This document shows, one piece after another, positions 11,964 to 27,277 of a DNA stretch of 32,000 nt. The notes beneath the pieces are model-generated. The model searched no databases. It worked only from the letters and a program-made list of their open reading frames with translations, and was not told the origin of the DNA. Positions within the stretch are counted from its first letter, which is position 1. The number at the start of each line of letters is the position of its first letter. The position numbers and the translations under genes were made by a program. Source of the DNA: Candidatus Jettenia sp. (GTDB taxonomy: Bacteria > Planctomycetota > Brocadiia > Brocadiales > Brocadiaceae); contig CP091278.1 in assembly GCA_021650895.1 (NCBI GenBank), positions 323,736 to 355,735 on the forward strand, in the 5' to 3' direction.

Positions 11964-12159
11964 TTTTGTTACCTAATAGTGGGATACAGATTAGCACAGA
12001 TAAGTACAAATAAAATAATGATGCGGGTGTTTTATGTAACTTACCCAATAGGTAATTAACTGTGCTTCTCTCTACGAATAAAAAATCTGTGTTCTTTATC
12101 GTCGTATTTCATAACACAAGTGTAAAGTCTGGAGTACCTTCGAAAGAGGATAATAGTAC

Positions 12160-12438
12160 ATGAGAACCAATAAATTCTTTGTATGTCCAAACTGTGGCAA
12201 TATCAAAAAATTTAAAGTATTTACGAGTAATTTTCAAATAGTTACACAATCCCCGGAATTAGGAATACGCATGAATGAAAGCGGTGTTTTGCCTAATTTG
12301 CGGCAGGCAGATAATTATATTGAATGTCAGTTGTGTTTTAAAAAATCAGAATACGATGCAGCAGTAAATCTTGGTGAGAAATATATCAAAGACATATCAA
12401 ATCAACCCAGAGAATTAAGGCGGTATACTGAGATATAA
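12160..12438 (+). CDS. Small Zn-ribbon protein of unknown function
   Basis: 92 aa with CPNC ... CQLC pairs. AGAGGA Shine-Dalgarno upstream. I recognise no family. Confidence 0.55.
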   Translation: MRTNKFFVCPNCGNIKKFKVFTSNFQIVTQSPELGIRMNESGVLPNLRQADNYIECQLCFKKSEYDAAVNLGEKYIKDISNQPRELRRYTEI

Positions 12439-12464
12439 AAAGTAGTTAATCTGGCAAAGCAAAG

Positions 12465-12482
12465 TGTATGCTATAACATACA
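12465..12482 (+). promoter_or_regulatory. Candidate enhancer (UAS) site 1: TGTATG-N6-CATACA
   Basis: Perfect 6-bp half sites. It shares the 11-mer ATAACATACAG with the site at 12564-12580. Confidence 0.4.
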
Positions 12483-12563
12483 GTGTTGTATGATTTAAAA
12501 ACAGACAAACATGCATATAAAGATTTTATTTTAGAATACTTATGACAATTTATAAGTAAAACA

Positions 12564-12580
12564 GTATGAATAACATACAG
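12564..12580 (+). promoter_or_regulatory. Candidate enhancer (UAS) site 2: GTATG-N5-CATAC
   Basis: GTATGAATAACATACAG, about 100 bp from site 1 and about 145 bp upstream of the -24/-12 element. Confidence 0.4.
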
Positions 12581-12708
12581 AAAGTACGAATAAAAATTTC
12601 TCTTTATGGAAAAGGGATGCTATAATAAACTAAATACAGGTATTGTAATAAGTTATGTTTTAAATAGTTATATATTATCCTTGTAGAAATTTTCGCATAA
12701 GGCGTTCT

Positions 12709-12725
12709 TGGCAGGTACATTGCTA
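12709..12725 (+). promoter_or_regulatory. Sigma-54 (-24/-12) promoter candidate for the PAS-GGDEF gene
   Basis: TGGCAG-GTACA-TTGCTA compared with the consensus TGGCAC-N5-TTGCW: correct GG/GC spacing and one mismatch. The 3' end of the element (12725) lies 85 nt upstream of ATG 12810. Confidence 0.6.
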
Positions 12726-12809
12726 ATGATGGCAATGTTACACAGCACTAAAAATAATTTTGCATGATATCTTGTGTTTGGTGTCTGTTTGTAGAAATAA
12801 ACAAGATTA

Positions 12810-13814
12810 ATGAAAGATGCAATGAAGCTAATTGAAAATTATAAAAAAATAAGAGTTTTGAATAAAGCATTAAATATAGTGCCAAATCACGTGAAGACGG
12901 AAGTAAACCATTATGCCCTAGTTGAAACATTTGTAGATGCTATTATATCGGCAAATCAGGAAGGGCGTATTGTTTATTGTAACCCTGCAGCAAAAAAGAT
13001 GTTTGGATATCAGGAAGAGATCATTGGTTGCGATATTACTGTCCTTATGCCTGAACGATATCGGCTAAAATATCAAATAGGTATGACGAAGTATATAAAT
13101 ACAGGGCTAACAAGGATTATAGGACAAACCATAGAGTCAGTTGGTTTAAAGAAGGATGGTATTGAATTTCCCATAGAGTTATCTGTATCGGCATCCATGG
13201 TTGATGACCGATATTTTTTTACCGGTATTATCCGGGATATTACTGAAAGAAAGTGTACGGAGTTTAAACTCCTTGAGTCTAATAGGAAATTGCAAGAGCT
13301 TTCTATTAAGGATAGTTTAACGAATTTATATAATCGGCGCCATACTTTTCATGTAATGGAAATTGAATTCAACAGGGCAAAAAGATATCAAAAATCCCTC
13401 TCATGTTTAATGATCGATATAGATTATTTTAAAAATATCAATGATCTCTATGGTCATCCCTTTGGAGATAAAGTACTCGTACATTTCTCCTCCTTTTTAC
13501 TCAATATGATACGCTCTACCGATATAGTTTCCCGATATGGAGGTGAAGAGTTTCTTGTTATTCTTCCCGATGTAGATATAAAGGGTGCTATGGACTTTGC
13601 TGAAAGATTACGGGAAGCCGTATCTAAACATACTATAGAGGATAAAGAAAGGAATATAAATGCAGCATTGAGCATCAGTGTTGGAGTCAGCTCTTTTACA
13701 GATAGTACACTTAATAAAGAAGAAATAATAAGCCAGGCAGATAAAGCCCTTTACGAGGCCAAGCGATCGGGAAGAAACAGAGTTTGCTGTATTCAAACTT
13801 GTAAGACTGTTTAA
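12810..13814 (+). CDS. PAS-GGDEF diguanylate cyclase
   Basis: GGEEF active site (RYGGEEF) with an RxxD I-site (RSTD) five residues upstream. N-terminal PAS domain. Confidence 0.9.
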   Translation: MKDAMKLIENYKKIRVLNKALNIVPNHVKTEVNHYALVETFVDAIISANQEGRIVYCNPAAKKMFGYQEEIIGCDITVLMPERYRLKYQIGMTKYINTGLTRIIGQTIESVGLKKDGIEFPIELSVSASMVDDRYFFTGIIRDITERKCTEFKLLESNRKLQELSIKDSLTNLYNRRHTFHVMEIEFNRAKRYQKSLSCLMIDIDYFKNINDLYGHPFGDKVLVHFSSFLLNMIRSTDIVSRYGGEEFLVILPDVDIKGAMDFAERLREAVSKHTIEDKERNINAALSISVGVSSFTDSTLNKEEIISQADKALYEAKRSGRNRVCCIQTCKTV

Positions 13815-13860
13815 AAAGAATAACTGTATCCGTATCTTTAAAATACTAACACAGGACGTG

Positions 13861-14750
13861 GAGACGCAAGATTTTGCGTCTCTCAGGGGAATGAACCCAC
13901 CCTTAACCCCATATACATCAAGCTAAAATAGGGAAACGGTGAAGAATAACATAATCCCCCTTAATCCCCTTTTAGAAAACTTATCCTTATCCACATCTTT
14001 AAATACCACAAAGAGCACGAAGTACACGAAGAATAAGAGAGTTCCAAATCTCAATAAATTCTTTTTATGATCGATCCCTTCTTGAGGCGATGTGAGTGTG
14101 AGTGAGAAAACACTGACACTGACACTAAACAAAAAGCAACACACCCCTACCTCAATTGTAAAGACGCAAAATCTTGCGTCTCTACGCCCTTTCTTCGTGT
14201 ACTTCGTGCTCTTTGTGGTATTTAAAGATGTGGGTAAGGATAAGTTTAAAAAGGGGGAAAGAAAGATAAATTTAGAAAAGAGGGAACGAGGGATTTCCCC
14301 CTTTTCTAAAACACCCATATATTTTCCCCTTTTTTAAAGGGGGATCAAGGGGGATTGTAGGTGGCTTGTTATTCTTCACCATTTCCCTATTTTAGCTTGA
14401 TGCATATGCCCCTAACCTCCCTTTTAGAAAAAGGGGGAAAAGAAGGATAAGTTTAGAAAAGCAGGGTGGCACGGACAAACCGTGTCCCCGTACGTCTTGA
14501 ACGGGGACATGGTTTGTCCATGGTGTTCGAATACACCCGCGGATAGGGAATATACCACACTGACAAACAGAGTTTGTCAGTGCCACCCAGGAAGAGGCTT
14601 AAAAAGAGAATAAAAATTTCACGAGAGACGCCCCCGGCGAGATATCTCTATATTCTAAAGATGTGGGTAAGGATAAGCTGGACGGGAGGGGATTGAGGGG
14701 TGGGTAAAAAAAGTTGCTGGATTTTATCTTTTAAAACCCAACCTAACTAA
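13861..14750. repeat. Nested repeat block: a family-D element split by about 770 bp of other repeats
   Basis: The left D half (13861-13910) and right D half (about 14685-14745) match 10568-10710. Between them lie a large imperfect palindrome (arms 13911-14033 and 14191-14407) and family-E copy 1. The 21-mer AAAGATGTGGGTAAGGATAAG occurs at 14224-14244 and 14657-14677, and in reverse orientation at 13980-14000. Confidence 0.75.
14464..14677 (+). repeat. Family-E element copy 1, containing a 125-nt cloverleaf-like module (14464-14588)
   Basis: About 90% identical by eye to 17495-17711. Module helices: P1 GGGTGGC/GCCACCC, P2 a 19-bp hairpin, P3 GGTGT-TCGAAT-ACACC, P4 a 10-bp hairpin. Confidence 0.75.
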
Positions 14751-14891
14751 AGTGGTAAAGAAATATCTCAGAGTAGAGTAAAATTGCTTATTTGACCCAG
14801 CCTGCTTGCTCCCCGCGTGAATGTAGACAGGGATAGCAAATCTAAAAGTTTTTCCTATAGAATTGCATTTCCTAAACATTTGTTATTCCCA

Positions 14892-14963
14892 AATGTCTGT
14901 GTCGGGAATCCAGTCTCCTTTCCTGTTTTTCTTCCTCATACCGGGATTTCCGACACAGACATT
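14892..14963. repeat. Long hairpin AATGTCTGTGTCGGGAATCC ... GGATTTCCGACACAGACATT
   Basis: 20-nt arms with 19/20 complementarity and a 32-nt pyrimidine-rich loop. Confidence 0.7.
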
Positions 14964-15108
14964 CAGGAATGGCAAGAAGAACCATCGTGGATTCAAACCC
15001 ACGCTCTTGTTCCTTCTCTGGTGCGCCAAATCATTCCCAGGTTTCACGTGTCCATTCCTAATTATAGAGAATGCACTCCGAGAGAATTTTAAGCAGTTGA
15101 AATTGTCA

Positions 15109-15137
15109 TTGACATTAATTTTGTAAACTTGTAAAAT
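15109..15137 (+). promoter_or_regulatory. Sigma-70-type promoter candidate upstream of acpS
   Basis: TTGACA (15109-15114), a 17-nt spacer, then TAAAAT (15132-15137). It lies about 70 nt upstream of ATG 15209. Confidence 0.5.
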
Positions 15138-15208
15138 GCCGTTTTCTCAGTGACAGATACTTGTATGATAAGTAGTTACAATAATTCCCATTATTGCATG
15201 AAATACGT

Positions 15209-15586
15209 ATGTACATTGGCATTGATATAATAGAAATAAAACGTATTGAAAGATTATTTTCTTCTAATGAGGGTTTTTTGAAGAAAATTTATACGGAAAA
15301 AGAAGTAGAATACTGTAATCAAAAAAAGAATAAATATCAGCATTTTGCAGCGCGTTTTGCTACCAAAGAGGCTGTATTCAAGGCATTAGGGACGGGCTGG
15401 ATAGGCACTATGAAATGGACAGATATTGAGTTGTTAAACGACGAAATGGGAAAACCGTATTTGAACCTTTATGGAAGTGTAAAAGAACTGGCAAATAAAA
15501 AGAATATTAACAATATTTCTGTATCAGTATCCCATTGCCGGGATTATGCTATTGCTCAGGTATTATTAGTGCCAGGTAGTATATGA
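15209..15586 (+). CDS. acpS: Holo-[acyl-carrier-protein] synthase (4'-phosphopantetheinyl transferase)
   Basis: MYIGIDIIEIKRI.. N-terminus, FAARFATKEAVFKALG and ISVSHCRDYAIAQV motifs, and about 125 aa are all typical of AcpS. The ORF track opens at TTG 15194; ATG 15209 fits the family N-terminus. Confidence 0.85.
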   Translation: MYIGIDIIEIKRIERLFSSNEGFLKKIYTEKEVEYCNQKKNKYQHFAARFATKEAVFKALGTGWIGTMKWTDIELLNDEMGKPYLNLYGSVKELANKKNINNISVSVSHCRDYAIAQVLLVPGSI

Positions 15587-15676
15587 AAATCTCAAACAGA
15601 GAAAAGTATAAAGGGTATCTGTGTGATTTCTATAGATAAGTTTTGACAATACTTACTAACGCCAGAGGGAACTTTC

Positions 15677-17155
15677 ATGAAAAAACTCGTACTGATTAAT
15701 CCTCATCCGATTGGAAATGTTGGGGAAGAAAACGTTTCTGTGCTAAATCAGATGCCGGTGAATCTCGGTTATCTTAAGAGATTAACACCGCAGCATTGGC
15801 AGGTTGATATTATTGATGAGACCCAGGAGCTTGCTATTGACAGCGCAGGGAATATTACTTTCAGTGGGGCAGATCTGGTGGGTATTACATCGGTAAGTTA
15901 TCAGGCTCATCGCGCCTACCAAATAGCTACTGCCTGCAAAAAAAAAGGCATACCTGTCATTATGGGTGGAATTCATGCTACGAGCTATCCGGAAGAGGTT
16001 GCAAAATATGTAGATTGTGTTGTTACCAGAGAGGCTATAACAATATGGGAAAAGATACTGGCTGATTTTGAAAATGGTGTTCTTCAAAAGAGATACGATG
16101 GTAATCTGACACCTATGGAGCTTTATCGTGATCTGAGGTCTGATAGGGAATATTTGAAGAATAAATACAAATATAGATATTCAGGCATCATAACGACGGC
16201 CGGATGCCCGTTTAGTTGCGAGTTTTGTTCTGTTCCTCAGTTTCAGGGTAAAAAATATCGGGAAAGGCCTATTGAAGACGTCCTGGATGAATTAGAATCC
16301 ATTAAGGGTCAATATCGTGGCCTGATATTAACGGATGAAAACTTTTATGGACATAGTAAAAAATCCAACGAGCGTGTTCGTGCACTTTTCAAGGGTATGG
16401 TAGAAAGAGGTATTTATCAAAATTGGTTTGGTTTTACCTCTCTTAATATTTACTCAGATGACGAAACTCTTGAATATATGGTCAAGAGCGGATGCGTTGG
16501 GGTGCTTATTGGAATTGAATCTATCAACGAAGAAGCCCTGAAAACCATGAATAAAAATGTGAATTTGCGTATCTCAATAGAGAAGTATTTCGAGGCAATT
16601 GCTAACATCCGTAAACACGGTCTTGCTGTATGGGGGACTATGGTTTTCGGAAACGATGCCGATACGCCTGAGACATTTAAGCAAGTTGCTGATTTTGTTT
16701 TAGACTCTCACGTAGATATTATGACGTGCGGCATTTTATGCCCATTTATTAACACGCCGCTTTATCATAGATTAAAAAGTGATAATAGACTTTTTCGGAC
16801 AAATTTTCCTGAGGACTGGAAGTATTATACATCTCATCACCTTACCTATATCCTTAAGAATATGTCTCTCCAGGAGCTTATTGATGGCTTTCAATATCTC
16901 TATGATAAAATTTATGCTACGGAGGTGTTACGACAAAGATTCCAGAATGCTAAGGACGTGTTGAGTAAGAATATGAATGCCGCTATGTTTGCATTCAGGG
17001 TCAATTTAGACTGGCAGAACGTGTATCAGCACTTGATCCAAAATTTAAAAGAATTGCAGGCATCAGGATTTTACGATGAGGTCCTGAAGCTCTATAATGA
17101 ATCGGAAAGACAAGGGAAAAAAACATCATTGACGCCAATTGAGGTCCCATCATAA
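15677..17155 (+). CDS. B12-binding-domain radical SAM enzyme (class B rSAM)
   Basis: N-terminal Rossmann-like cobalamin domain (..VIMGGIHAT..). CPFSCEFC CX3CX2C cluster motif with Cys codons at 16205, 16217 and 16226. GAGGGA Shine-Dalgarno. Confidence 0.85.
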   Translation: MKKLVLINPHPIGNVGEENVSVLNQMPVNLGYLKRLTPQHWQVDIIDETQELAIDSAGNITFSGADLVGITSVSYQAHRAYQIATACKKKGIPVIMGGIHATSYPEEVAKYVDCVVTREAITIWEKILADFENGVLQKRYDGNLTPMELYRDLRSDREYLKNKYKYRYSGIITTAGCPFSCEFCSVPQFQGKKYRERPIEDVLDELESIKGQYRGLILTDENFYGHSKKSNERVRALFKGMVERGIYQNWFGFTSLNIYSDDETLEYMVKSGCVGVLIGIESINEEALKTMNKNVNLRISIEKYFEAIANIRKHGLAVWGTMVFGNDADTPETFKQVADFVLDSHVDIMTCGILCPFINTPLYHRLKSDNRLFRTNFPEDWKYYTSHHLTYILKNMSLQELIDGFQYLYDKIYATEVLRQRFQNAKDVLSKNMNAAMFAFRVNLDWQNVYQHLIQNLKELQASGFYDEVLKLYNESERQGKKTSLTPIEVPS

Positions 17156-17365
17156 AACCTGTCAACACCTAACTATAGAGTTAGCAAATTACTATACTCA
17201 AGACAGAAACTTATTTTCATGGTCTTTTTACGTTATATTAACAATTAACAGGTCAGCGTATACACGGGAGATGGGTGAATACGTTGACCTCTGTTGTTTT
17301 ACCAGTTAAAATAGATATATCAGCAGAGTTCATAATTACAGAAAATAGCGCTCGGACAAGAATCT

Positions 17366-17711
17366 TATCTTTACCCACAAGCATTCTCCCCCTTTTCTAA
17401 AGGGGGTTAGGGGGGATTAGAGGGAAACATGGACACACGTTGTTCTTTTTACCGCTCAGAGAGGTAAATTTGAGTAGTGCGATAAGACAAAACGGGGTGG
17501 CACGGACAAACCGTGTCCCCGTACGCCTTGAACGGGGACATGGTTTGTCCGTGTTGTTCGAATACACCCGTGGATAGGGAATATACCACACTGACAAACG
17601 GAGTTTGTCAGTGCCACCCAGGAATGGGCTTGCAGAGAATAACAATTTCACGAGAGACGTCCCCGGCCAGACATCTTTTCATAGTATTCTAAAGATGTGG
17701 GTAAGGATAAG
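17366..17711 (+). mobile_element. Family-E element copy 2 (MITE-like, with inverted termini), containing the 125-nt module at 17495-17619
   Basis: Left end CTTATCTTTACCCACA (17366-) and right end TGTGGGTAAGGATAAG (-17711) are inverted. The core matches 14464-14677. Confidence 0.65.
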
Positions 17712-17732
17712 GACAAGAATGGAGCATGGGTT

Positions 17733-18428
17733 ATGCCATCTACAAAGGATAGAGTTGATAATCTTGAGAGGGTACTTGCAGAATATATTAAAAATATTGG
17801 CAATGCCCAGATGCAGACCGAAAGAGAAATTCGGGAATTCAAGGAAGAGGTGAAAGAGTTTAAAGATGAGATGAAGGAGTTTAAAGATGAAATGAAGGAA
17901 TTCAAAGACGAGATGAAGGAGTTCAAAGATGAAATGAAGGAATTTAAGGACGAGATGAAGGAATTCAAGGACGAGATGAGGGAAGATAGAAGAAATATGA
18001 ACAAAAAGTGGGGTGAAATTGCCAATAAGATGGGGACGGTGGTAGAAGATATCGTAGCGCCCAATATCCCACGGATTGCACAAGAATATTTTCAATGCGA
18101 AGATGCGGAATTTTTTGGGTTAAGGGTAACGAAAAGAAATTCAAAGGATAAATCAAGAAGCAGGGAGTTTGATATAATCGCTGTATACGATGATAAGATA
18201 CTCATAAACGAAACTAAATCTTCACCAAGGATTGATTACATCAACGAATTTATCGAGGTACTGAAAGAGGTTTACGATTACTTTCCCGAGTATAAAGGAA
18301 AAAGAATAATTCCCATATTTTCTTCCCTTTATATTCCGGAAAATGTGGTAACGTATCTTACGAAAGTGAAAGTTTACGCCATGGCTATGAAGGATGATGT
18401 CATGGAGTTGTTGAATCCCCATATTTGA
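17733..18428 (+). CDS. Coiled-coil heptad-repeat protein with a C-terminal PD-(D/E)XK nuclease-fold domain (DUF3782-like architecture)
   Basis: Seven EFK(D/E)E(M/V)(K/R) heptads, then ..EFDIIAV..x..INETKS (a D..ExK motif). The ORF-track ATG at 17697 lies inside the repeated 21-mer, so ATG 17733 is preferred. Confidence 0.7.
   Translation: MPSTKDRVDNLERVLAEYIKNIGNAQMQTEREIREFKEEVKEFKDEMKEFKDEMKEFKDEMKEFKDEMKEFKDEMKEFKDEMREDRRNMNKKWGEIANKMGTVVEDIVAPNIPRIAQEYFQCEDAEFFGLRVTKRNSKDKSRSREFDIIAVYDDKILINETKSSPRIDYINEFIEVLKEVYDYFPEYKGKRIIPIFSSLYIPENVVTYLTKVKVYAMAMKDDVMELLNPHI
17835..17981 (+). repeat. 7 x 21-bp in-frame tandem repeat
   Basis: Units start at 17835, 17856, 17877, 17898, 17919, 17940 and 17961. 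Units 2-6 differ only at synonymous third positions. Confidence 0.9.
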
Positions 18429-18495
18429 TATAACGGGCAATCTCCTTTTGACAGATACGCATCAATTTTAAAAATATTCAAATGAGGTATTATTT

Positions 18496-19728
18496 CTGAT
18501 TACTGAAAAAAATAAGTCAAAAGTAGTAATTACCGGATTAGGACTGGTTACCCCTGTTGGGATAGGTGTTCAAAAAAGTTGGGAATCCTTTATCCATGGC
18601 CGCGATGGAGCTAATGAGATGAAGTCATTCGATACCTCCCATTACAAGGTTCACCGTTCTTGTGAGGTAAAGGATTTTCATCTGGATGTTGAATTAGAGA
18701 ATCAAATAAAGGAAAATACCATCCATAAATATGTTTATTATGCAGCCCGGGAGGCATTGCAGGAAAGCGGTTTGTTGCATGATAAGAGCAGCTTTAATAA
18801 GGAACGTTTTGGTATTGCCATGGGAACCTTAGCGGCTGAATTAACACCTCATGAAAGACTTTTACGATTACATACCTCAAAAAAAGATAACGGTTTTGAT
18901 AAGATTGTTGCTGCTGTTTATCCTCCAAATTCTATTACGAATATCCTTGCTCAATATTTTCACTTTGAAGGGCCTACCATGGTCTCACTGAATGCCTGTT
19001 CTTCAGGTAATCATGCCATTGCCTGGGCTTACGACCTTCTTATAGAAAATAAGGTAGATGTTGTAATGGTTGGTGGAGGGGATATGATCCCTCAAACGGA
19101 ATTTACTCATTTCCATAATCTCAAAGCGCTTGCTCCTGAACACTGTCAGCCTTTTGATAAAAACAGGCAAGGACTCATGATCGGAGAAGGAGCCGGTATC
19201 TTGATCATGGAACGTTATGAATTTGCCAGGAAAAGGGGGGCAGTTATTATTGCTGAAATGGCGGGTTATGGATTAAGCTGTGATGGATTCCATATGACAG
19301 CACCTCATCCGGAAGGTGAAGGTGCTGTAAAATGTATGAGTGATGCGCTAAAAATGGCAAGACTTTCTCCGTCTGATATTGGCTATATCAATGCACATGG
19401 TACGGGTACACCACATAATGATAAGGCGGAGACTATTGCTATAAAGCACCTATTCAGAGATCATGCTTATAACATTCCCTGCAGTTCTACAAAATCCATG
19501 ATAGGTCATCTTATGGGTGCAGCGAGTGCTGTAGAATCTGTTATATGCTGCCTTGCATTACGATACGGAATATTGCCTCCAACAATTCATTACCATACAC
19601 CTGATCCGGAGTGTGACCTTGATTACGTACCTAATAGGGCACGGGAGTTAACCGTTAAGCATGTTTTAAATAACTCATTTGCCTTTGGTGGTAATAACGC
19701 TACCACGATATTCAGTAAAATAGAATAG
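18496..19728 (+). CDS. Beta-ketoacyl-ACP synthase (KAS I/II, FabF-like), catalytically intact
   Basis: Cys-His-His triad present: NACSSG (Cys codon 18997-18999), NAHGTGT, GHLMG. The conserved N-terminus KVVITGLGLVTPVG is encoded upstream of the first ATG (18619). The start is therefore placed at CTG 18496 (or ATT 18499), after a GAGGT Shine-Dalgarno at 18484-18488. Confidence 0.8.
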   Translation: MITEKNKSKVVITGLGLVTPVGIGVQKSWESFIHGRDGANEMKSFDTSHYKVHRSCEVKDFHLDVELENQIKENTIHKYVYYAAREALQESGLLHDKSSFNKERFGIAMGTLAAELTPHERLLRLHTSKKDNGFDKIVAAVYPPNSITNILAQYFHFEGPTMVSLNACSSGNHAIAWAYDLLIENKVDVVMVGGGDMIPQTEFTHFHNLKALAPEHCQPFDKNRQGLMIGEGAGILIMERYEFARKRGAVIIAEMAGYGLSCDGFHMTAPHPEGEGAVKCMSDALKMARLSPSDIGYINAHGTGTPHNDKAETIAIKHLFRDHAYNIPCSSTKSMIGHLMGAASAVESVICCLALRYGILPPTIHYHTPDPECDLDYVPNRARELTVKHVLNNSFAFGGNNATTIFSKIE

Positions 19729-19741
19729 TCTTTACATACTT

Positions 19742-20971
19742 ATGAAACGAAGAGTCGTAGTTACAGGAATAGGGATTGTATCACCTCTTGGATTTACCAA
19801 AGAGGATTTTTGGAATAACCTCATAGAGGGAAAATCGGGCATTGTGCCAATGACATCTCTTGATCTCTCACCATATACATGCAAGCTTGGCGGAGAGGTT
19901 AGAGACCTTCATCCCGAAATCTATCTTGGTAATAAAGGTTTGAAGTACTTACATAAAGGCACAAGGTTCTTAGGATCGGCCACGAAGATGGCGCTTGATG
20001 ATGCAAAGTTACCGCAGGATGGTTCTTTATCGGATCAAACAGGTGTGGTTATTGGGTCGTCTTTAGGCAATTTTTCTGAAACAACAGATTATTTCTATGA
20101 GATTATCAGAAATAATCCTTCAGAATTATCGCCGATGGTCAGCTATGATGTCGCATTAAATTCTTCAATTAACTACGTTTCTGTTACCTTTAAGATAAAG
20201 GGACTTGCACGGACTATATCAGCAGGTTTCACATCAAGTGCGGATGCGATAGGGAATGCATATGGCATAATTCAGCGAGATATGGCCAAAGTTATTGTTG
20301 CGGGTGGAGTCGAGCAGATTTCTATCGACCTGTATCTCATATTTTATCTGCGAGGTCTCTTATCAGGTCTTGATGGCACAAAGGAGGCTAGTTTACCCTT
20401 CGATAATAAAAGGAATGGTTTTGTAATGTCTGAAGGCAGTTATGTGGTTATTCTCGAAGAGCTTCAGCATGCTCTGGACAGAGGAGCGCCTATCTACGCA
20501 GAAGTAAGAGGCTTTGGGAACACCTTTGTAGGCGGTAAAAATTATTCGAAAGAGGAAAGGACACGCCGTGTTGAAAGGGCCATGTACAGCGCCTTAGAAG
20601 AAGCAGATATTCAGAAAGAAACTATTGATCTTATCAGCGCAAATGCAAATGGATGCAAAATGCAGGACGCTATTGAAGCACAGGCAATCCAATCCTTTTA
20701 TGGCTCAAAGGGCAATGATATTCCTATCTCGGCAATAAAATCGAATATGGGTGAATCTTATGGTGCCGCAGGTGCTGCTCAGTTTATTTCTACTGTAATG
20801 TCTATACATACCAGCACAATACCCCACATCATTAATCACAACGAAAAAGATCCGAAAGTTAATCTAAACCTTATCCTGCAGAATCCCGTCAGGAAAGAAA
20901 TTCAAAATGCAATGGTAAACACCATGGATTACGATGGAAATAATTCATGTTTGGTGATAAGTAAATTATGA
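19742..20971 (+). CDS. Ketosynthase-like protein lacking the catalytic triad (chain-length-factor/KS-beta-like partner)
   Basis: Full-length thiolase-fold KS homologue. Cys->Phe (codon 20228-20230), His->Asn (20642-20644), His->Glu (20753-20755). It starts 13 nt after the KS stop. Confidence 0.8.
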   Translation: MKRRVVVTGIGIVSPLGFTKEDFWNNLIEGKSGIVPMTSLDLSPYTCKLGGEVRDLHPEIYLGNKGLKYLHKGTRFLGSATKMALDDAKLPQDGSLSDQTGVVIGSSLGNFSETTDYFYEIIRNNPSELSPMVSYDVALNSSINYVSVTFKIKGLARTISAGFTSSADAIGNAYGIIQRDMAKVIVAGGVEQISIDLYLIFYLRGLLSGLDGTKEASLPFDNKRNGFVMSEGSYVVILEELQHALDRGAPIYAEVRGFGNTFVGGKNYSKEERTRRVERAMYSALEEADIQKETIDLISANANGCKMQDAIEAQAIQSFYGSKGNDIPISAIKSNMGESYGAAGAAQFISTVMSIHTSTIPHIINHNEKDPKVNLNLILQNPVRKEIQNAMVNTMDYDGNNSCLVISKL

Positions 20972-21369
20972 GCAAACTGTTTGAAGAAATACCTGTCGGT
21001 CAGATGGCAGTAAAAAACAGGATAATCATGTCTGCCATGGATTTGGGATTTACTTCTGACGGTACAGTGAATGACCGGATTATTCGTTTTTACGAGGATC
21101 GTGCCAAAGGTGGTGTTGGTCTTATTGTTGTAGGCGGTTGTTATCCGGAAATGAATGGTAAGGTTTGGAAGAGTATTATTGGATTAGACAAGGATGAGCT
21201 TATTCCGGGATTACGAAGATTAACCGATACTGTTCATGCCTATCAGGTGCGTATCGCCGCTCAGTTGCTTCACGGTGGCCGCAGCGCCTCATCCTTCTTT
21301 ACAAAATGCAGCCTGTTTCTCCCTCTCCCCTGGTGCACAGAAGTATCAAACAGGAACCTCATGCCCTGA
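20968..21369 (+). CDS. N-terminal fragment of a 2,4-dienoyl-CoA reductase/enoate reductase (OYE-like FMN domain); out of frame after about codon 113
   Basis: Homology (..AAQLLHGGR..) ends near 21305, and the remaining 20 codons are unrelated. The start overlaps the previous stop codon (ATGA). Confidence 0.7.
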   Translation: MSKLFEEIPVGQMAVKNRIIMSAMDLGFTSDGTVNDRIIRFYEDRAKGGVGLIVVGGCYPEMNGKVWKSIIGLDKDELIPGLRRLTDTVHAYQVRIAAQLLHGGRSASSFFTKCSLFLPLPWCTEVSNRNLMP

Positions 21370-22988
21370 CAGTTTCAGAGATTAAAACGGTTATCGGTAA
21401 TTATGTCAGCGCAACCGTAAGGGCAAAAAAGGCCGGCTTTGATGCCGTGGAGCTTCACGGTGGTATGGGATATCTCATTAATCAATTCCTTTCAAAGGCT
21501 ACCAATAAGCGTGATGATGAGTATGGTGGAAGTCTTGAAAACAGAGTTCGTTTTGCCAGGGAGATAATAATCGCCATAAAAGAAGCCGTTGGGAAGGACT
21601 ATCCTATCATCTTTCGAATGTCAGGAGATGATCTTGTTGCAGAAGGGCTCAAAATAGATGAGAGTCTGGAAATTGCCCGGATGTTAGAGCAATCAGGTGC
21701 TGATGCCTTTAACGTATCTCCTGGCTGGCATGAGAGCAGAACGCCTATCCTATCAATGATTATTCCACGGATGGCTTATACCTTTCTTTCACAAAGGATC
21801 AAATCATGCGTAAAAGTTCCGGTAATTGCCTCAGTCAGAATAAACGATCTTACCCTGGCCGAAGAGATCTTAGGCAATGAGCAGGCAGACATGGTATCCC
21901 TTGGCAGACCACTCATCGTAGATCCTGATTTGCCGAATAAATACAAAAACGGGCAATTTGATGATATCAGAACATGTATTGCCTGTAATCAGGGTTGCTT
22001 TGATTCTTTGCTGAATTTTAAATCCGTTTCCTGTACGTATAATGCAATGGCAGGACATGAAGGTGAATATAAAATAATTCCATCGAGCAAACCGAAAAAG
22101 GTGGTGGTCGTAGGTGGAGGACCTGCCGGTATGGAAGCTGCCCGTGTTTTGGCATTACGGGGACACAGGGTTACCTTGTATGAGAGGAAAAAACACCTGG
22201 GCGGTCAATTACGGTATGCCTTTATTCCTCCGGGACGTGAAGAAATACAAAATATTATCACCTACCTGGAAAAGCAGATTTTCAGGCTTAAGGTACATAT
22301 AAAAACCGGAAAAGAGGCTGATTTACCAACGTTACAGGAGGAACATCCCGATGCCATAGTTGTAGCCACGGGCGGAAATCCTGTCATGCCTAATCTTCCC
22401 GGTATAAAAGGGAAACAGGTATATACAGCAAGTACTATATTGGAGGGAAAAGTTTTACCGGGAAAGGACGTGGTCATACTTGGCGGTGGAACTGTAGGAT
22501 GTGAGGTGGCACTGCACATAGCCAAACAGGGAACAATGCGGCCTGATGTGGCTTGTTTTCTGCTAAAACACAAGGTGCTCAGCGACAGGGATGTCATTGA
22601 ATACACTACAAGGGGAAATAAGAATGTCACCATTCTGGAAATGAAAAAGAAAATAGGTGGCGGATTTGGTATTTCCACACGATGGGTTATTCTCAATGAG
22701 TTAAAAGACGCGGGGGTAAAAGAAATAACAGAAGTGCGGGTGAAGGAAATAATACATACTAGTGAAAATGGCAGAAAAACGGAAGGTGTCGTTTATGAAA
22801 AGGGCGGAAAAGATTATTTTATCAAGGCAGATACCGTTATTATTGCTGTCGGGTACAGTCCTTATAACGATATACAAAAGCAGATAGAAGGAAAGTTTCC
22901 GGAGATATATTGTATTGGTGATTGCGTTAAGGTTCGCACTGCATTAGAAGCTATTCACGAAGGTTTTGAAGTTGCCTTAAAGATATAA
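21306..22988 (+). CDS. C-terminal 560 aa of the same FadH-type reductase (rest of the TIM barrel, 4Fe-4S, FAD/NAD(P)H domains)
   Basis: PSPL..ELHGGMGYLINQFLS, CIACNQGC..C cluster motif, VVVVGGGPAGMEAA dinucleotide fold. No Shine-Dalgarno before ATG 21306. Confidence 0.8.
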   Translation: MQPVSPSPLVHRSIKQEPHALTVSEIKTVIGNYVSATVRAKKAGFDAVELHGGMGYLINQFLSKATNKRDDEYGGSLENRVRFAREIIIAIKEAVGKDYPIIFRMSGDDLVAEGLKIDESLEIARMLEQSGADAFNVSPGWHESRTPILSMIIPRMAYTFLSQRIKSCVKVPVIASVRINDLTLAEEILGNEQADMVSLGRPLIVDPDLPNKYKNGQFDDIRTCIACNQGCFDSLLNFKSVSCTYNAMAGHEGEYKIIPSSKPKKVVVVGGGPAGMEAARVLALRGHRVTLYERKKHLGGQLRYAFIPPGREEIQNIITYLEKQIFRLKVHIKTGKEADLPTLQEEHPDAIVVATGGNPVMPNLPGIKGKQVYTASTILEGKVLPGKDVVILGGGTVGCEVALHIAKQGTMRPDVACFLLKHKVLSDRDVIEYTTRGNKNVTILEMKKKIGGGFGISTRWVILNELKDAGVKEITEVRVKEIIHTSENGRKTEGVVYEKGGKDYFIKADTVIIAVGYSPYNDIQKQIEGKFPEIYCIGDCVKVRTALEAIHEGFEVALKI

Positions 22989-23045
22989 CATGTTTTTACC
23001 CCGGATAGATACAGACAAGCATAGATAACAATAAGGGTTTTGACA

Positions 23046-23852
23046 ATGAAAGATATCCGCATGAATCGTGGTGATAACTCCGGTTATGATCACATTGAAT
23101 TTGAAGAAATCAGGACAAATAATGGTAAGGCCATCGGTATTATTTATCTGAAAAAACCTCCACGAAACTCTATAGGTTCATGGCTTCTGGATGCCCTCTA
23201 TGATAAGATGGATCAATATGAGGGTGATGAGAGAGTGGGCGCTATTATTATTGCCAGTAAACTAAGGGGCGTCTTTAGTGACGGCGCTGACCGTGATGAG
23301 CTCTTTGGCACCTGGATATCGGGTCTTGTAGCTGATAAGAATTATGAGCGGTTTCATCGCGCTCATGAGATGTTTGTGGAGATTGAAAATTGTAAAAAGC
23401 CTGTTATTGCTGCCATAAACGGAGTTACGATCGGTGCTGGTTTAGAGCTTGCTATGCTGTGTGACCTGCGTATTGCATCTGAACTTTCCTTTTTCAGCCT
23501 GCCAGAGGCAAAACCTGAACTGAGTATTATTCCCGGTCTTGGAGGCACACAGCGTTTGCCCCGTTATATCGGTATGGCACGTGCTAAGGAGATGCTGTTT
23601 TTAGGAAAGATGATCCGTGCTGAGACTGCTTTGGAATGGGGTCTCATTAATCAAATTTCACCTCATAAAGAGGTTATAGATCATGCCATAGTTTTGGCAG
23701 AAACGCTGTTAAAACGAGATGCAAGGGCACTCAAAGAGATGAAGAAATGTATCAATTTTGCGGGAGAGAACGATATCCTGAAAGGTATTGAATATGAGGT
23801 GGGTCTCTTTGCAGAGATGATGCGATTAAAATTTTCGAATAAGGGTAAATAA
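23046..23852 (+). CDS. Enoyl-CoA hydratase/isomerase (crotonase) family protein
   Basis: Oxyanion and catalytic motifs ING..GAGLELAMLCD and LPEAKPELSIIPGLGGTQRL; both catalytic Glu positions are present. The ORF track opens at TTG 23040. Confidence 0.85.
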   Translation: MKDIRMNRGDNSGYDHIEFEEIRTNNGKAIGIIYLKKPPRNSIGSWLLDALYDKMDQYEGDERVGAIIIASKLRGVFSDGADRDELFGTWISGLVADKNYERFHRAHEMFVEIENCKKPVIAAINGVTIGAGLELAMLCDLRIASELSFFSLPEAKPELSIIPGLGGTQRLPRYIGMARAKEMLFLGKMIRAETALEWGLINQISPHKEVIDHAIVLAETLLKRDARALKEMKKCINFAGENDILKGIEYEVGLFAEMMRLKFSNKGK

Positions 23853-23923
23853 GGCATATTTTGAAAGTGCTTCCCATATTTTTTACCTTATAAAGAGAAA
23901 CGACTAATCAAAAGGAGGTAATT

Positions 23924-24667
23924 ATGGAGTTCAAGGATACCGTAGCAATAGTTACGGGTGGTACCCGGGGTATAGGCAAGTCAATCGCATTAGAACTGGC
24001 AAAAAACGGCTGCAACATAGCCTTTAACTACAATAAAAATACCGATGCTGCCCATCTTCTGGTAAAGGAAATTGAATCGATGGGTACAAAGGCCATTTCT
24101 TTCCAGGTAAATGCAGCCAGCTTTGAAGGTGCTAAGAATATGGTAAAAGAAGTGAAGGATAGATTTGGAAAGATTGATTTCCTGGTAAATAATGCCGGTA
24201 TTACCCGTGATAAACTCCTCGCTTTAATGGCAGAGAATGATTGGGATGATGTTATCAATACCAATCTCAAAAGTGTTTATAATTTTTCTAAATCGGTAAT
24301 TACCCAGATGATCAAACAAAAATCCGGTAGTATCCTGAATATAACCTCAGTAAGCGGAATAACGGGAATAGCAGGTCAGGTAAACTATTCTTCCTCCAAG
24401 GCCGGTATGATAGGATTTACCAAGGCCCTTGCCAAAGAGGTGGGGAAGGCAAATATTACGGTAAATGCAATAGCCTGCGGCTTTATTGAAACAGATATGA
24501 CGGCAGTTTTACCTCAGGAATATAAGGATAAAATGATTGAGATGATTCCGGTAAGAAGATTTGGCACACCTGATGATGTCGCTAAAGCGGCGATTTTCCT
24601 GTTATCAGACCATGCTAAATACATTACCGGTCATGTAATTAGTGTCGATGGTGGTTTAGCAATGTAG
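23924..24667 (+). CDS. fabG: 3-oxoacyl-ACP reductase (SDR)
   Basis: TGGTRGIGKS, NNAG, S..YSSSK catalytic motif, 247 aa. AAGGAGG Shine-Dalgarno. Confidence 0.85.
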   Translation: MEFKDTVAIVTGGTRGIGKSIALELAKNGCNIAFNYNKNTDAAHLLVKEIESMGTKAISFQVNAASFEGAKNMVKEVKDRFGKIDFLVNNAGITRDKLLALMAENDWDDVINTNLKSVYNFSKSVITQMIKQKSGSILNITSVSGITGIAGQVNYSSSKAGMIGFTKALAKEVGKANITVNAIACGFIETDMTAVLPQEYKDKMIEMIPVRRFGTPDDVAKAAIFLLSDHAKYITGHVISVDGGLAM

Positions 24668-24747
24668 AAAGAGAGTGGAGTCCTGATTCCTGTAGGAAAC
24701 CAGGAAACGTTACCGTTGCAACTATTGTAAATTGAAAGGTAAAGACT

Positions 24748-25059
24748 ATGCTATTTTTATTAAAAGTTGAAATAAAGCAAATGCCCCCTTTGCCGGTAAA
24801 AGACTTTTTGGAATATGTTATAAAAGAATGGGAATATTTTTCACGATTTCAAAGGCGTGGCAAGATTATAGCGGGTGGGAAATTAGCTGGTAAGAGGGGG
24901 GCTGCGGCTATAATCGATGCTGAATCCAATGAAGAGATGGAAGAGATCGTCTCAAAATTACCGCTCTTTCCGTTCTTTACCGATATAGAAATTACGCCTC
25001 TTGTGCCTATGGAGAAGGCACTTCTGGATACCAAGAGGATTCATTCGCTGATGAAGTAG
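24748..25059 (+). CDS. Muconolactone delta-isomerase-fold small protein
   Basis: 103 aa. MLF..K.. N-terminus and the LPLFPFFTDIEITPL signature align, by my recollection, with CatC-type muconolactone isomerases (LPLFPYMDIEV). Confidence 0.55.
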   Translation: MLFLLKVEIKQMPPLPVKDFLEYVIKEWEYFSRFQRRGKIIAGGKLAGKRGAAAIIDAESNEEMEEIVSKLPLFPFFTDIEITPLVPMEKALLDTKRIHSLMK

Positions 25060-25064
25060 CGGCG

Positions 25065-26357
25065 CTAATGTTGAGGGTGGTCCGTATGATGGAAAATTCC
25101 AAATAACTTTTTGATGGTTTCTACGTATCGATATCCACCTCCGTTTTTCGCCTCTTGTTTTGCTACCTTTGCCGGGTGGTGAAGGAGTTTATTAATGGTA
25201 CGTTCAATAGTGTAAACAACTTGTTCCCATTCTCCATCTTGCATGTTTTTCAGTTTTGGTTTTAAACGATTTAACTCTTCCCTGCCGATCGCATGAAAAT
25301 GATTCCGCAATAGGGTTATTGCAGGTTCTATCTTTATTTCCTCAAGCTTTGCCATAAAATGTTCTACTTCCTCTTCAATAATACTACGGCATTTTTCTAT
25401 CTCTCTGGTTCGCTCATCGATGTTTTGGCTTACGACAGATTGTAAATCATCAATATTGTAGAGATATACATTGTCAATTTTGGCGACGTCAGGTTCAATA
25501 TCTCTTGGAACGGCAATATCTATGAGGAATATAGGATTTCCCCTCCGGTGTTTGATGGCCTCTTTTATCTGCTGGGCATGAATCACATAGTGAGGAGCGG
25601 AAGTGGAGCTAATAATAATATCAGCCTTTGCGAGGTATTCTCCCAGTAATTCATATTTAATGGCCTGGCCATGATATGTGTGAGCAAGTTCCTGTGCACG
25701 TTCAAATGTGCGGTTTGCAACCACGAATGTACGCGCTCCTTCTTCATACAGATGCTTTATGAGAAGCTCGCACATTTCACCGGCGCCTACCACGAGAACC
25801 ATTTTTCCGGTAAAATCCTGAAATATTTTTTCGGCAAATTCTACTGCTACAGAACTTATAGAGACCTTTCTCTTTCCAATAGAAGTTTTCGTATGCACGA
25901 TTTTAGCGACATTGAGCGCCTGCTGAAATAGCTGATTGAGGACCTTTCCCGTGGATTCCTGCAAAGACGCTATGGTATAGGCTTCTTTAACCTGTGACAG
26001 GATTTGTGATTCTCCTAATACCATAGAATCAAGGCTGGTAGTGACAAAGAAAAGATGATTAACCGCCCGGTCGTCCTTGTTATGGTACATATAAGGGGAA
26101 AAAACAGGTAACTCAACCTTGTGGAAATCAGCAAGGAATGAAAGGACATCCTCTGCTTGAATAGTGCCATCCAAAGAGGATACATATATTTCAACACGGT
26201 TACAGGTCGATAAGATAACAGCTTCTGCCTTTTGATATTTTTGAAGAAAATAGGATAAAGCAGTGGGGATATTATTAGCATTAAAAGCAAGTTTTTCTCT
26301 AACCTCTACAGGGGCTGATTTATGGTTCAACCCTACAACTAAAATACTCATGTCCAA
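25065..26357 (-). CDS. hemA: Glutamyl-tRNA reductase
   Basis: N-terminus ..ILVVGLNHKSAPVEVREKL, catalytic-Cys region LSTCNRVEIY, NADPH fold VVGAGEM. 430 aa. Confidence 0.9.
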   Translation of the reverse strand: MDMSILVVGLNHKSAPVEVREKLAFNANNIPTALSYFLQKYQKAEAVILSTCNRVEIYVSSLDGTIQAEDVLSFLADFHKVELPVFSPYMYHNKDDRAVNHLFFVTTSLDSMVLGESQILSQVKEAYTIASLQESTGKVLNQLFQQALNVAKIVHTKTSIGKRKVSISSVAVEFAEKIFQDFTGKMVLVVGAGEMCELLIKHLYEEGARTFVVANRTFERAQELAHTYHGQAIKYELLGEYLAKADIIISSTSAPHYVIHAQQIKEAIKHRRGNPIFLIDIAVPRDIEPDVAKIDNVYLYNIDDLQSVVSQNIDERTREIEKCRSIIEEEVEHFMAKLEEIKIEPAITLLRNHFHAIGREELNRLKPKLKNMQDGEWEQVVYTIERTINKLLHHPAKVAKQEAKNGGGYRYVETIKKLFGIFHHTDHPQH

Positions 26358-26407
26358 TCCTTAGTCAAATAGAAACGATATAGAATTTCGGTTGCAGCCT
26401 AAATTTT

Positions 26408-27277
26408 TTATTGAATATGTAAAATCTTTGTATGAGATTGTTCGTTGACATTCTGAAAGGCATGTTTGGATCCCATAAAGAAGGTACCGATAAAGGTAAA
26501 AAGCACAAGGCAAAAACCTGCAATAGTCAAACATGCGATCTTTGTACCATGAAAAGATGCGACAAGGCGCATATGCAACAGCGCTGCGTATATGAGCCAG
26601 GTTGCCAAACCAAGAATAACCTTGTAATCCAAATACCACATCTCGCCTAAAATATTTTGTGTTTTTACCCAAAAAGTACCAAATACAAGTCCTAAGGTGA
26701 GGAGAGGAAAGCCAAAAGAAATTGTTTTCCACATAAGCTTGTCAATTCCTTCCAATGAGGGCAATCTATTAAAAAGAGGGCCAAATAACTTATGTTTTAA
26801 TTGTCTTTGCTGTGTTAAATACATGATACTCAGGCTAAAGGATATGGTAAAGGCGGCGTATCCTACAAATATAGGGATAATATGCGCTATAAGCCAAAAG
26901 TTCTGAAGATGCACGGTAATGAGCAGATTCCCTCCATCAAATGTAAGTGCCCATAGTGAAAGCGCTGTAACAACAGGAATTAAAAAAGTATCTAGAGAGG
27001 GTAATTTGTAAAGATAATCCAGATTGATGTAAACAAAGAGAATACACCAGAGTAATGATATGAAGGATTCGTATACATTGGTTATCGGGATATTGCTTGA
27101 TTCAAAACCCAGGAATACCAGAAAACCGCTGTGAATAAAGAATCCCATCATCATAGACCACTTGACTACTTTTCTATTAAAAGCAAGTGGTTTTACGATG
27201 GATCCTATAGACCATACCGAAGATATGAAATAGAGGACTATAACAATTATAAAAGGAGTATGTGGTAACGATATCAT
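26408..27277 (-). CDS. CcsA/ResC-family (HemX-like) polytopic membrane protein
   Basis: About 8 hydrophobic segments. Sits directly upstream of hemA on the same strand. The Trp-rich region FWVKTQNILGEMWYLDYKV is a degenerate version of the WGxxWxWDPKE haem-handling motif. Confidence 0.6.
   Translation of the reverse strand: MISLPHTPFIIVIVLYFISSVWSIGSIVKPLAFNRKVVKWSMMMGFFIHSGFLVFLGFESSNIPITNVYESFISLLWCILFVYINLDYLYKLPSLDTFLIPVVTALSLWALTFDGGNLLITVHLQNFWLIAHIIPIFVGYAAFTISFSLSIMYLTQQRQLKHKLFGPLFNRLPSLEGIDKLMWKTISFGFPLLTLGLVFGTFWVKTQNILGEMWYLDYKVILGLATWLIYAALLHMRLVASFHGTKIACLTIAGFCLVLFTFIGTFFMGSKHAFQNVNEQSHTKILHIQ

Follow-up and report, generated by a model that had tools for sequence, protein, structure and literature searches.

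An eight-gene acyl-ACP operon conserved among anammox bacteria and its possible part in ladderane lipid synthesis

Gene content of the cluster and assignment of its enzymes

The 32-kb stretch of Candidatus Jettenia DNA analyzed here (the window) contains, at 15109-25059, a set of genes which an earlier note on this DNA had read as a single non-housekeeping cluster acting on acyl chains carried by an acyl carrier protein (ACP), possibly for the synthesis of a ladderane-type lipid. Assignment of these genes with Pfam and NCBIfam profiles recovered, in order, a holo-ACP synthase (AcpS), a cobalamin-domain radical S-adenosylmethionine (SAM) enzyme, an inserted gene of different character, a ketosynthase (KS), a second ketosynthase-like protein without the catalytic triad (KS'), a FadH-type reductase, a crotonase, the 3-oxoacyl-ACP reductase FabG and a small muconolactone-isomerase-fold protein (Table 1). 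All the open reading frames (ORFs) of the cluster lie where the note had placed them, every one on the + strand, and the close coupling which it had described is borne out by the ORF and profile analysis: KS and KS' are separated by 13 nt, and the stop codon of KS' overlaps the start of the reductase as ATGA at 20968-20971.

A profile scan of every ORF of at least 80 amino acids found no ACP, FabD, FabH, FabZ/A or FabI/K/L/V in the 32-kb window, and no acyl-CoA dehydrogenase, thiolase or acyl-CoA synthetase near the cluster in the window. Likewise, neither a tblastn search with Escherichia coli AcpP nor a search of the window for the GxDSL motif returned an ACP. The FabD, FabH, ACP, FabZ/A and FabI-type genes that mark a canonical operon for type II fatty acid synthesis are, in agreement with the earlier note, missing from the window. 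The label non-housekeeping is nevertheless wrong for AcpS, as kuste2802 is the sole AcpS listed for Kuenenia in Table 1 of Rattray et al. (PMC2649909), and the AcpS of the cluster is probably the only one of its genome.

KS' shares 97-99% identity with proteins of Candidatus Jettenia, and its best 120 relatives, down to 73% identity, come exclusively from anaerobic ammonium-oxidizing (anammox) bacteria or from unnamed metagenome sequences, those bearing names being all anammox bacteria. The window therefore comes from an anammox bacterium, which the earlier note had offered only as a possibility. A contig of assembly GCA_029287025.1 encodes cluster proteins 99-100% identical to those of the window, the region of a frameshift discussed below excepted. 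The order AcpS, radical SAM enzyme, KS, KS' is that of kuste2802-2805 of Kuenenia stuttgartiensis, which encode AcpS, a B12 radical SAM enzyme, FabF and a non-canonical FabB/F, and the syntenic genes of Kuenenia hertensis are 72-86% identical to the four core genes of the window. The Kuenenia genes, corresponding to operons 3 and 4 of Javidpour et al. 2016 (PMC4790861), were named as a ladderane candidate cluster by those authors and by Rattray et al. 2009 (PMC2649909), and the four are termed 'a complete cluster' in these Kuenenia papers. As the first four genes are orthologous to a set published in 2009, the core of the cluster was already known, and the statement in the earlier note that comparative genomics had put forward such clusters for ladderanes is supported.

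The KS retains an intact Cys/His/His triad. In KS', alignment to Bacillus subtilis FabF and to chain C of PDB entry 9s5h places Phe at the Cys position and Asn and Glu at the two His positions, while the Lys is kept (motifs SAGFTSS, ANANGC and IKSNMGESYG); kuste2805 shows the same pattern, with Phe163, Asn298 and Glu333 replacing the triad and Lys328 retained (Rattray et al., Table 2). The best PDB match of KS is 9s5h_B (amxFabF2; 370 bits versus 152 against chain C), and that of KS' is 9s5h_C (amxFabFmut; 305 bits versus 206 against chain B). Entries 9s5h and 9s5i evidently represent the anammox amxFabF2/amxFabFmut heterodimer of a preprint (10.64898/2026.05.19.726425), which describes a complex resembling those of a KS with a chain-length factor (CLF), able to decarboxylate malonyl-ACP only as a pair and preferring short chains. 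That each subunit matches best its own chain of this heterodimer backs the KS/CLF architecture proposed in the earlier note.

The annotated KS comprises 369 amino acids, but another 34 conserved codons (KVVITGLGLVTPVG...) precede its ATG at 18619 in the same frame. In other genera the KS starts at an upstream ATG, giving a protein of about 402 amino acids, and in both Jettenia genomes the corresponding codon is AAG (18514-18516); because the usual ATG has been lost, gene callers report a 369-residue KS devoid of its first strand. Two possible alternative starts, CTG at 18496 and ATT at 18499, lie downstream of a GAGG sequence (18485-18488), suggesting that the Jettenia KS may be translated from a non-canonical start codon. 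A genuine N-terminal truncation was rejected, as it is the canonical start that is lost and the upstream frame is conserved.

In the radical SAM enzyme the CxxxCxxC motif takes the form CPFSCEFC at residue 177, and matches to PF02310 (38.9 bits versus a threshold of 32.1) and PF04055 (75.7 bits) give it the features of the class B, cobalamin-dependent type; it is 82% identical to the syntenic protein of Kuenenia hertensis. Membership in the NCBIfam family TIGR04072, 'rSAM_ladder_B12', was rejected, the score of 80.7 bits standing against a curated cut-off of 360, and the enzyme represents a B12 radical SAM lineage other than TIGR04072. Its best partial NCBIfam matches are cobalamin-dependent methylases and their kin (PhpK, HpnR, BchE), all far below their cut-offs. 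A HMMER search initiated with it retrieved 1334 representatives at E<1e-30, the nearest cluster representative being 52% identical and followed by a continuum at 35-44%; hence the old statement that kuste2803 is little like anything is outdated.

The FadH-type reductase, which the earlier note had counted as two split halves, is a single gene with a one-base homopolymer frameshift: an A-run at 21303-21306 has four residues against five in two other Jettenia assemblies (L001 and L005), a 1-nt deletion. The window accordingly offers no intact reading frame for this enzyme, which is intact at 673-682 amino acids in every other genome examined; the frameshift most probably stems from an error in the assembly or else from a lesion at the level of the strain. 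The protein retains all four cysteines of the Fe-S cluster, and the proton donors of FadH, Tyr166 and His252, align with a Tyr and a His that are likewise conserved (motifs CIACNQGC...C, GMGYLIN and GWHESR). In the crotonase, alignment to solved enoyl-CoA hydratases locates both catalytic glutamates, in GAGLELAM and SLPEAK, in line with the earlier reading. The muconolactone-isomerase-fold protein shows remote similarity to PDB structures (E ~3e-4) and is 62-75% identical across anammox families. That it is a true muconolactone isomerase of the beta-ketoadipate pathway was considered and rejected, on a TIGR03221 score of 42.5 against 130.6 and on its neighbors, FabG and HemA.

Table 1. Features of the Jettenia cluster (coordinates are those of the window)
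Feature	Coordinates	Strand	Evidence and remarks
Sigma-70-like promoter match TTGACA-17-TAAAAT	15109..15137	+	11/12 matches, best in 13800-25400; consensus match only
Holo-ACP synthase AcpS, 125 aa, likely ATG 15209	15194..15586	+	Pfam ACPS 72 bits; TIGR00516 103 vs cut-off 59.8; kuste2802 orthologue; gene call of 125 aa in L001
Cobalamin-domain (class B type) radical SAM enzyme, kuste2803 orthologue	15677..17155	+	Pfam B12-binding, Radical_SAM, DUF4070
~230-nt repeat, copy of 14458-14688, leading into inserted gene	17489..17722	+	79-92% identity
Inserted 243-aa coiled-coil/repeat gene	17697..18428	+	KEFKDEM heptads, then unassigned C-terminal domain
Active KS, kuste2804 orthologue	18496..19728	+	Annotated start ATG 18619; Cys/His/His; conserved N-terminus upstream
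Triad-less KS partner (KS'), kuste2805 orthologue, CLF-like	19742..20971	+	Phe163/Asn/Glu, Lys retained
FadH-type FMN/4Fe-4S/FAD reductase	20968..22988	+	Two ORF pieces, 20968-21369 and 21306-22988, frameshifted
Crotonase (enoyl-thioester hydratase/isomerase), likely ATG 23046	23040..23852	+	Pfam ECH_1 164 bits; both catalytic Glu
3-oxoacyl-ACP reductase FabG	23924..24667	+	TIGR01830 321.8 bits vs cut-off 297.75
Muconolactone-isomerase-fold protein, 103 aa	24748..25059	+	Pfam MIase 52.9 bits vs cut-off 26.7

Conservation across anammox lineages and relationship to Cluster I

Species-representative genomes were scanned and yielded 33 loci, every one from Brocadiaceae (Jettenia, Brocadia, Kuenenia hertensis, Loosdrechtia and Wunengus); the scan employed very specific peptide patterns, so that the return of this family alone is no evidence of absence elsewhere. 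The AcpS-radical SAM-KS-KS' core is intact in 25 of the 26 Brocadiaceae loci with enough upstream DNA. The exception (L023; CAYJPZ010000049.1) has a KS-like gene without KS, radical SAM enzyme or AcpS within 9 kb upstream. Reductase and crotonase lie within 9 kb downstream in just 9 of these loci, often parted from KS' by unrelated genes encoding FapA-like and GNAT proteins. The pairing of FabG with the isomerase-fold gene is invariant, also where the other genes of the operon lie elsewhere, and in Brocadiaceae the two are followed by HemA and CcsA genes in convergent orientation (23924-27277 in the window, where the stop codons of the isomerase-fold gene and HemA are 5 nt apart).

From Brocadiaceae alone it was plausible that the four downstream genes are a juxtaposition specific to Jettenia, but this was ruled out by Scalindua, Hypogeohydataceae and metagenome contigs. 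In Scalindua (L042) AcpS, radical SAM enzyme, KS, KS', reductase, crotonase, FabG and the isomerase-fold protein are encoded contiguously with overlapping stops and starts, and the KS'-reductase stop/start overlap is found in both Jettenia and Scalindua. A seven-gene form without the crotonase occurs in a Hypogeohydataceae metagenome-assembled genome (MAG; L043), in a Planctomycetota contig of 53% GC (L044) and in a further contig (L124). A metagenome scan with an alignment of the isomerase-fold protein recovered 80 loci, in which FabG is directly upstream of the isomerase-fold gene wherever there is upstream DNA. Among them the full eight-gene order is present in eight Scalindua-like contigs, Brocadia-like contigs show the reductase-crotonase-FabG-isomerase block beside convergent HemA-CcsA, as in the window, and some contigs carry FabG and the isomerase-fold gene alone, behind unrelated housekeeping genes. 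The arrangement, recurring in Scalindua and dozens of anammox contigs, is far beyond chance. The eight-gene order, contiguous in Scalindua and present save for the crotonase in Hypogeohydataceae, is therefore ancestral among the anammox families sampled, and what Kuenenia has in its four genes is a broken remnant of it. This synteny also backs the treatment of all these genes as one cluster in the earlier note.

The core of the operon has counterparts in a second anammox gene set, Cluster I: the radical SAM enzyme is 54% identical to kuste3608, KS 47% to kuste3605 and KS' 40% to kuste3606, and kuste3608 is identified as the Cluster I radical SAM enzyme by its K. stuttgartiensis context, ACP-FabZ-KS-KS'-desaturase-like-radical SAM. 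In neighbor-joining trees the kuste2803-type radical SAM enzymes of Jettenia, Brocadia, Kuenenia, Scalindua, Hypogeohydataceae and L044 group in a single clade, which within the sample analyzed consists exclusively of anammox-lineage sequences, and its sister is a larger clade uniting the Cluster I enzymes with non-anammox sequences. Anammox genomes thus carry two paralogous radical SAM/KS/KS' trios, each with its own set of accessory enzymes. On L044 (6886-21239; JGI 3300041077 Ga0452210_000054) Cluster I, represented by radical SAM enzyme, desaturase-like enzyme and KS', is situated 3 kb from the operon in opposite orientation, suggesting that the two modules were once neighbors.

Such trios are also found in other organisms. 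Cluster I has been called unique to ladderane producers (preprint 10.64898/2026.05.19.726425); we observed a contig labelled Acidobacteria, of 60% GC (L039; GCA_036790625.1, DAIQJH010000003.1, 5476-12338), in which ACP, FabZ, KS, KS', a phytoene-desaturase-like enzyme and a B12 radical SAM enzyme are followed by FabG and FabH. Its proteins are 39-59% identical to kuste3603-3608, and its KS' is without the triad. A Planctomycetota MAG (L125) has KS-KS'-radical SAM, with Glu at the Cys position of KS', and a Myxococcota MAG (L126, 1-2640) has two radical SAM genes followed by KS. The KS/KS'/B12 radical SAM trio is a wider module type occurring outside anammox bacteria. Unlike those of the window type, the radical SAM enzymes of L039, L125 and L126 fall outside the kuste2803-type clade, and none of these contigs has the reductase-crotonase-FabG-isomerase block. 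On two non-anammox contigs, L041 (123-3168) and L126 (1-2640), two B12 radical SAM paralogues stand in tandem.

A contig of less certain affiliation (L040; ENA ERZ27247351 k141_425567, 10001-16113, 52% GC) carries radical SAM enzyme, KS, KS' (Phe/Asn/Glu), crotonase, FabG and isomerase-fold protein, without AcpS or FadH-type reductase. Its proteins are 59% (KS), 46% (KS'), 63% (FabG) and 62% (isomerase-fold) identical to those of the window. The named relatives of its KS' are all anammox bacteria, at 44-51% identity with none above 51%, whereas its radical SAM enzyme groups not with the kuste2803 type but with Cluster-I-type and Blastocatellia-labelled sequences. L040 could derive from a deep anammox relative or from a non-anammox carrier. 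In scans limited to particular patterns or words, the kuste2803/2804/2805 lineage together with the reductase-crotonase-FabG-isomerase block was found on anammox-lineage contigs and L040 only.

The inserted gene, repeats and neighboring genes

The 243-amino acid gene between the radical SAM enzyme and KS is well supported as an insertion. Among more than 30 loci, an insertion at this point is present only in Jettenia (L001, with a remnant in Jettenia ecosi, L005) and in L024, which has a 62%-identical homologue of the gene in the same intergenic position. Seven tandem 21-bp units at 17834-17984 encode its KEFKDEM heptads. The earlier note had regarded it as a mobile interloper of the PD-(D/E)XK fold; the comparison of loci and the repeats uphold the insertion. 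For the putative nuclease fold, neither Pfam (E up to 1) nor PHROG gave a match in the C-terminal domain. Only a D...ExK-like motif (FDIIAV...INETK) can be discerned by eye, and a single-sequence AlphaFold model has a predicted local distance difference test score of 38, too low to be of use.

A direct repeat of ~230 nt, whose copies at 14458-14688 and 17489-17722 are 79-92% identical and spaced by ~3031 nt, brackets the AcpS and radical SAM genes. The inserted gene has its start within the motif TAAAGATGTGGGTAAGGATAAG, of which the window holds three copies, at 14223, 14656 and 17690. Upstream of AcpS, the 1.4-kb intergenic DNA contains at 13845-14408 a series of nested inverted repeats, with arms of 57 nt (98% complementary), 42 nt (95%) and 37 nt (86%), which looks like a miniature inverted-repeat transposable element or another palindromic element. 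The best promoter-like match of the region coincides with position 15109, from which the earlier note had begun the cluster. Rfam and tRNA scans of the window gave no match, and a T-arm-like hairpin at 14986-15003 is not a tRNA.

Farther upstream, a 33-bp tandem repeat in two copies (3096-3162) separates genes for a molybdopterin oxidoreductase and a PAS histidine kinase; it has a CCCCC...GGGGG hairpin-like core resembling motifs of the 13.9-14.5 kb region. Two tandem sigma-54 response-regulator genes (5642-7345 and 8245-9948) encode proteins of 567 amino acids each, 78% identical. The histidine kinase, regulator and HD-GYP genes upstream of AcpS, a few of the latter with GGDEF, show a synteny among Brocadia, Jettenia and Loosdrechtia that does not extend to Kuenenia or Scalindua.

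Proposed function and comparison with known systems

We propose that the Jettenia genes are one copy of an anammox-wide operon specifying a self-contained, non-canonical set for acyl-ACP elongation and tailoring, whose product would be an anammox-specific lipid, most plausibly a ladderane intermediate or part made together with Cluster I; we hold this with moderate confidence. In favor of this proposal the operon is present in every anammox lineage sampled. It is also backed by the matches of KS and KS' to the two chains of the anammox heterodimer, by the catalytic residues kept in reductase and crotonase, by the FabG score and by the purely anammox membership of the kuste2803-type clade in our sample. 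The active KS and the triad-less KS' would form a KS/CLF-like heterodimer extending an ACP-bound acyl chain. Because the window contains no ACP or FabD, ACP and malonyl transfer would be supplied in trans, with AcpS priming the carrier. FabG is predicted to reduce the 3-keto group; the crotonase may then dehydrate or isomerize the product in the role of FabZ, and the FadH-type flavoprotein may reduce conjugated enoyl or dienoyl thioesters in that of FabI. Every step of an elongation cycle would thus have its enzyme in the operon. The isomerase-fold protein might shift a double bond or help in ring closure, and the cobalamin-type radical SAM enzyme might carry out a radical C-H/C-C step, be it methyl transfer or ring formation. 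A FadH-type enzyme together with an isomerase fold is compatible with the conjugated or migrating double bonds proposed in the earlier note; a polyene-then-cyclize chemistry is an inference only.

Several observations weigh against this proposal. FadH and the crotonases are classically enzymes of CoA-dependent beta-oxidation. In many Brocadia as well as in Kuenenia and Loosdrechtia the operon has come apart and unrelated genes lie downstream, so that co-transcription is not obligatory, and the crotonase is absent from the seven-gene forms (L043, L044 and L124). L040 carries radical SAM enzyme, KS, KS', crotonase, FabG and isomerase-fold protein, and the KS/KS'/B12 radical SAM modules of non-anammox MAGs weaken the ladderane specificity of the trio. 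Our searches, being pattern- or word-limited, do not prove the operon absent outside anammox bacteria. Further, E. coli expressing kuste2802-2805 produced no new fatty acids, the proteins being mostly insoluble (PMC4790861).

The cluster might alternatively make another anammox lipid, such as the mid-chain methyl-branched 10-methylhexadecanoic acid, in which case the radical SAM enzyme would be a C-methyltransferase working on the ACP-bound chain. Methyl-branched fatty acids are present in anammox bacteria, and most characterized class B radical SAM enzymes are methylases. The methylase kinship of the best partial profile matches and the annotation of a Kuenenia radical SAM paralogue as a bacteriochlorophyllide methyltransferase also agree with this, but every one of those matches falls far short of its cut-off. 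Moreover, a KS/CLF pair, a dienoyl reductase and an isomerase of its own would be superfluous for a methylase, and such acids are not confined to anammox bacteria, whereas the kuste2803-type clade appears to be. We consider this explanation unlikely, if far from negligible. It is more improbable that two unrelated neighbors have been taken for one unit, namely a specialized AcpS/radical SAM/KS/KS' core and a CoA-ester degradation set composed of FadH, crotonase, a short-chain dehydrogenase/reductase resembling 3-hydroxyacyl dehydrogenases and the isomerase. The textbook role of the first two enzymes, the position of E. coli FadH as the best PDB match of the reductase, and the fact that in Kuenenia, Loosdrechtia and many Brocadia the downstream block stands apart from the core, unrelated genes lying between the two or farther on, all fit such a division. 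However, the order has been retained across the deeply diverged Scalinduaceae, Brocadiaceae and Hypogeohydataceae, the stop/start overlap of KS' and reductase recurs in Jettenia and Scalindua, the dehydrogenase/reductase is a FabG equivalog and hence an ACP-type enzyme, and the other enzymes of CoA-ester degradation sought in the window (acyl-CoA dehydrogenase, thiolase and acyl-CoA synthetase) are not nearby.

The KS/CLF architecture, for which the ishigamide KS (6kxd) and the cispentacin AmcF model (194.5 bits versus a cut-off of 325) give matches of moderate strength, could be accommodated by a pathway resembling type II polyketide synthases (PKS) which produces a small secondary metabolite, a polyene or carbocycle comparable to ishigamide or cispentacin, and not a membrane lipid. 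FabF and the anammox FabF heterodimer are matched better than either of these; the window has none of the dedicated ACP, adenylation enzyme, thioesterase, transporter and regulator typical of such clusters; and anammox bacteria universally possess the cluster, which is vertically conserved among them and adjoins Cluster I in L044. We therefore regard this pathway as quite improbable. Ordinary housekeeping fatty acid synthesis is hardly credible: the AcpS is the sole one reported for Kuenenia and FabG scores above its equivalog cut-off, but FabD, FabH, ACP, FabZ and FabI are missing from the window, the partner of KS lacks the catalytic triad, and Kuenenia holds a separate canonical fatty acid synthesis set, kustd1386-1389 (PMC2649909).

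A bolder form of our proposal, conceivable though we think it rather unlikely, assigns the anammox-restricted half of ladderane synthesis to the eight-gene operon, and not to Cluster I alone. The operon would provide a complete alternative elongation cycle of KS/CLF pair, FabG, crotonase as the dehydratase and FadH-type enzyme as the enoyl/dienoyl reductase, in which the radical SAM enzyme and the isomerase-fold protein build or process the cyclobutane rings stepwise on the growing ACP-bound chain. Cluster I, whose full synteny is shared by an Acidobacteria MAG, would supply a more widespread precursor, for instance the short linear or unsaturated part.

The biosynthesis of ladderanes, the lipids of anammox bacteria with chains of fused cyclobutane rings, has stood as an unsolved question for over 20 years. 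Reviews and preprints of 2026 still tie no enzyme to it; as of August 2026 the pathway is unresolved, with biochemical proof for no cluster (PMC13459092). Experiments have so far centered on Cluster I, and heterologous work on the second cluster was limited to the four Kuenenia genes; in the open-access literature we found no dienoyl reductase, crotonase or muconolactone-isomerase-like gene linked with ladderanes. What is added here to the published core is modest but real: the boundary of the conserved unit at eight genes, which brings in the dienoyl reductase, crotonase, FabG and isomerase-fold protein; the paralogy of its radical SAM/KS/KS' trio with that of Cluster I; and the existence of Cluster-I-like modules and other relatives outside anammox bacteria. 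These three results change the choice of genes to be cloned or reconstituted, and open a concrete hypothesis of its function to testing.

Among known systems, the type II PKS provide the precedent for the ketosynthase pair: in the KS/CLF of actinorhodin (1TQY) and in Iga11/Iga12 of ishigamide (6KXD), as here, an active KS stands beside an inactive homologue in a heterodimer presumed to set chain length. The pair of the window is, however, less similar to these than to FabF, the classical CLF has Gln at the Cys position where the Jettenia KS' has Phe, and unlike the type II PKS clusters the window is devoid of PKS cyclases, aromatases and a dedicated ACP. The reductase in its full-length form aligns end to end with the 2,4-dienoyl-CoA reductase FadH of E. 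coli (1PS9; 375 bits), its best PDB match, and shares with it the architecture of a flavin mononucleotide (FMN) domain of the old yellow enzyme type, a 4Fe-4S cluster and a domain for flavin adenine dinucleotide (FAD) and NAD(P)H; unlike E. coli FadH it is encoded within an acyl-ACP synthesis operon, its start coupled to the stop of KS'.

Cluster I (kuste3603-3608) brings its own ACP, FabZ and phytoene-desaturase-like enzyme, in place of which the cluster of the window has AcpS, the FadH-type reductase, crotonase, FabG and the isomerase-fold protein; the two also differ at the Cys position of the inactive ketosynthase, which is Val or Thr in amxFabFmut of Cluster I and Phe in the KS' of the window. 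The last of these comparisons is with the kuste2802-2805 cluster. In Kuenenia this unit consists of four genes, whereas Jettenia, Scalindua and several other lineages add the FadH-type reductase, crotonase, FabG and isomerase-fold gene, and Jettenia also has an extra gene inserted between the radical SAM enzyme and KS.

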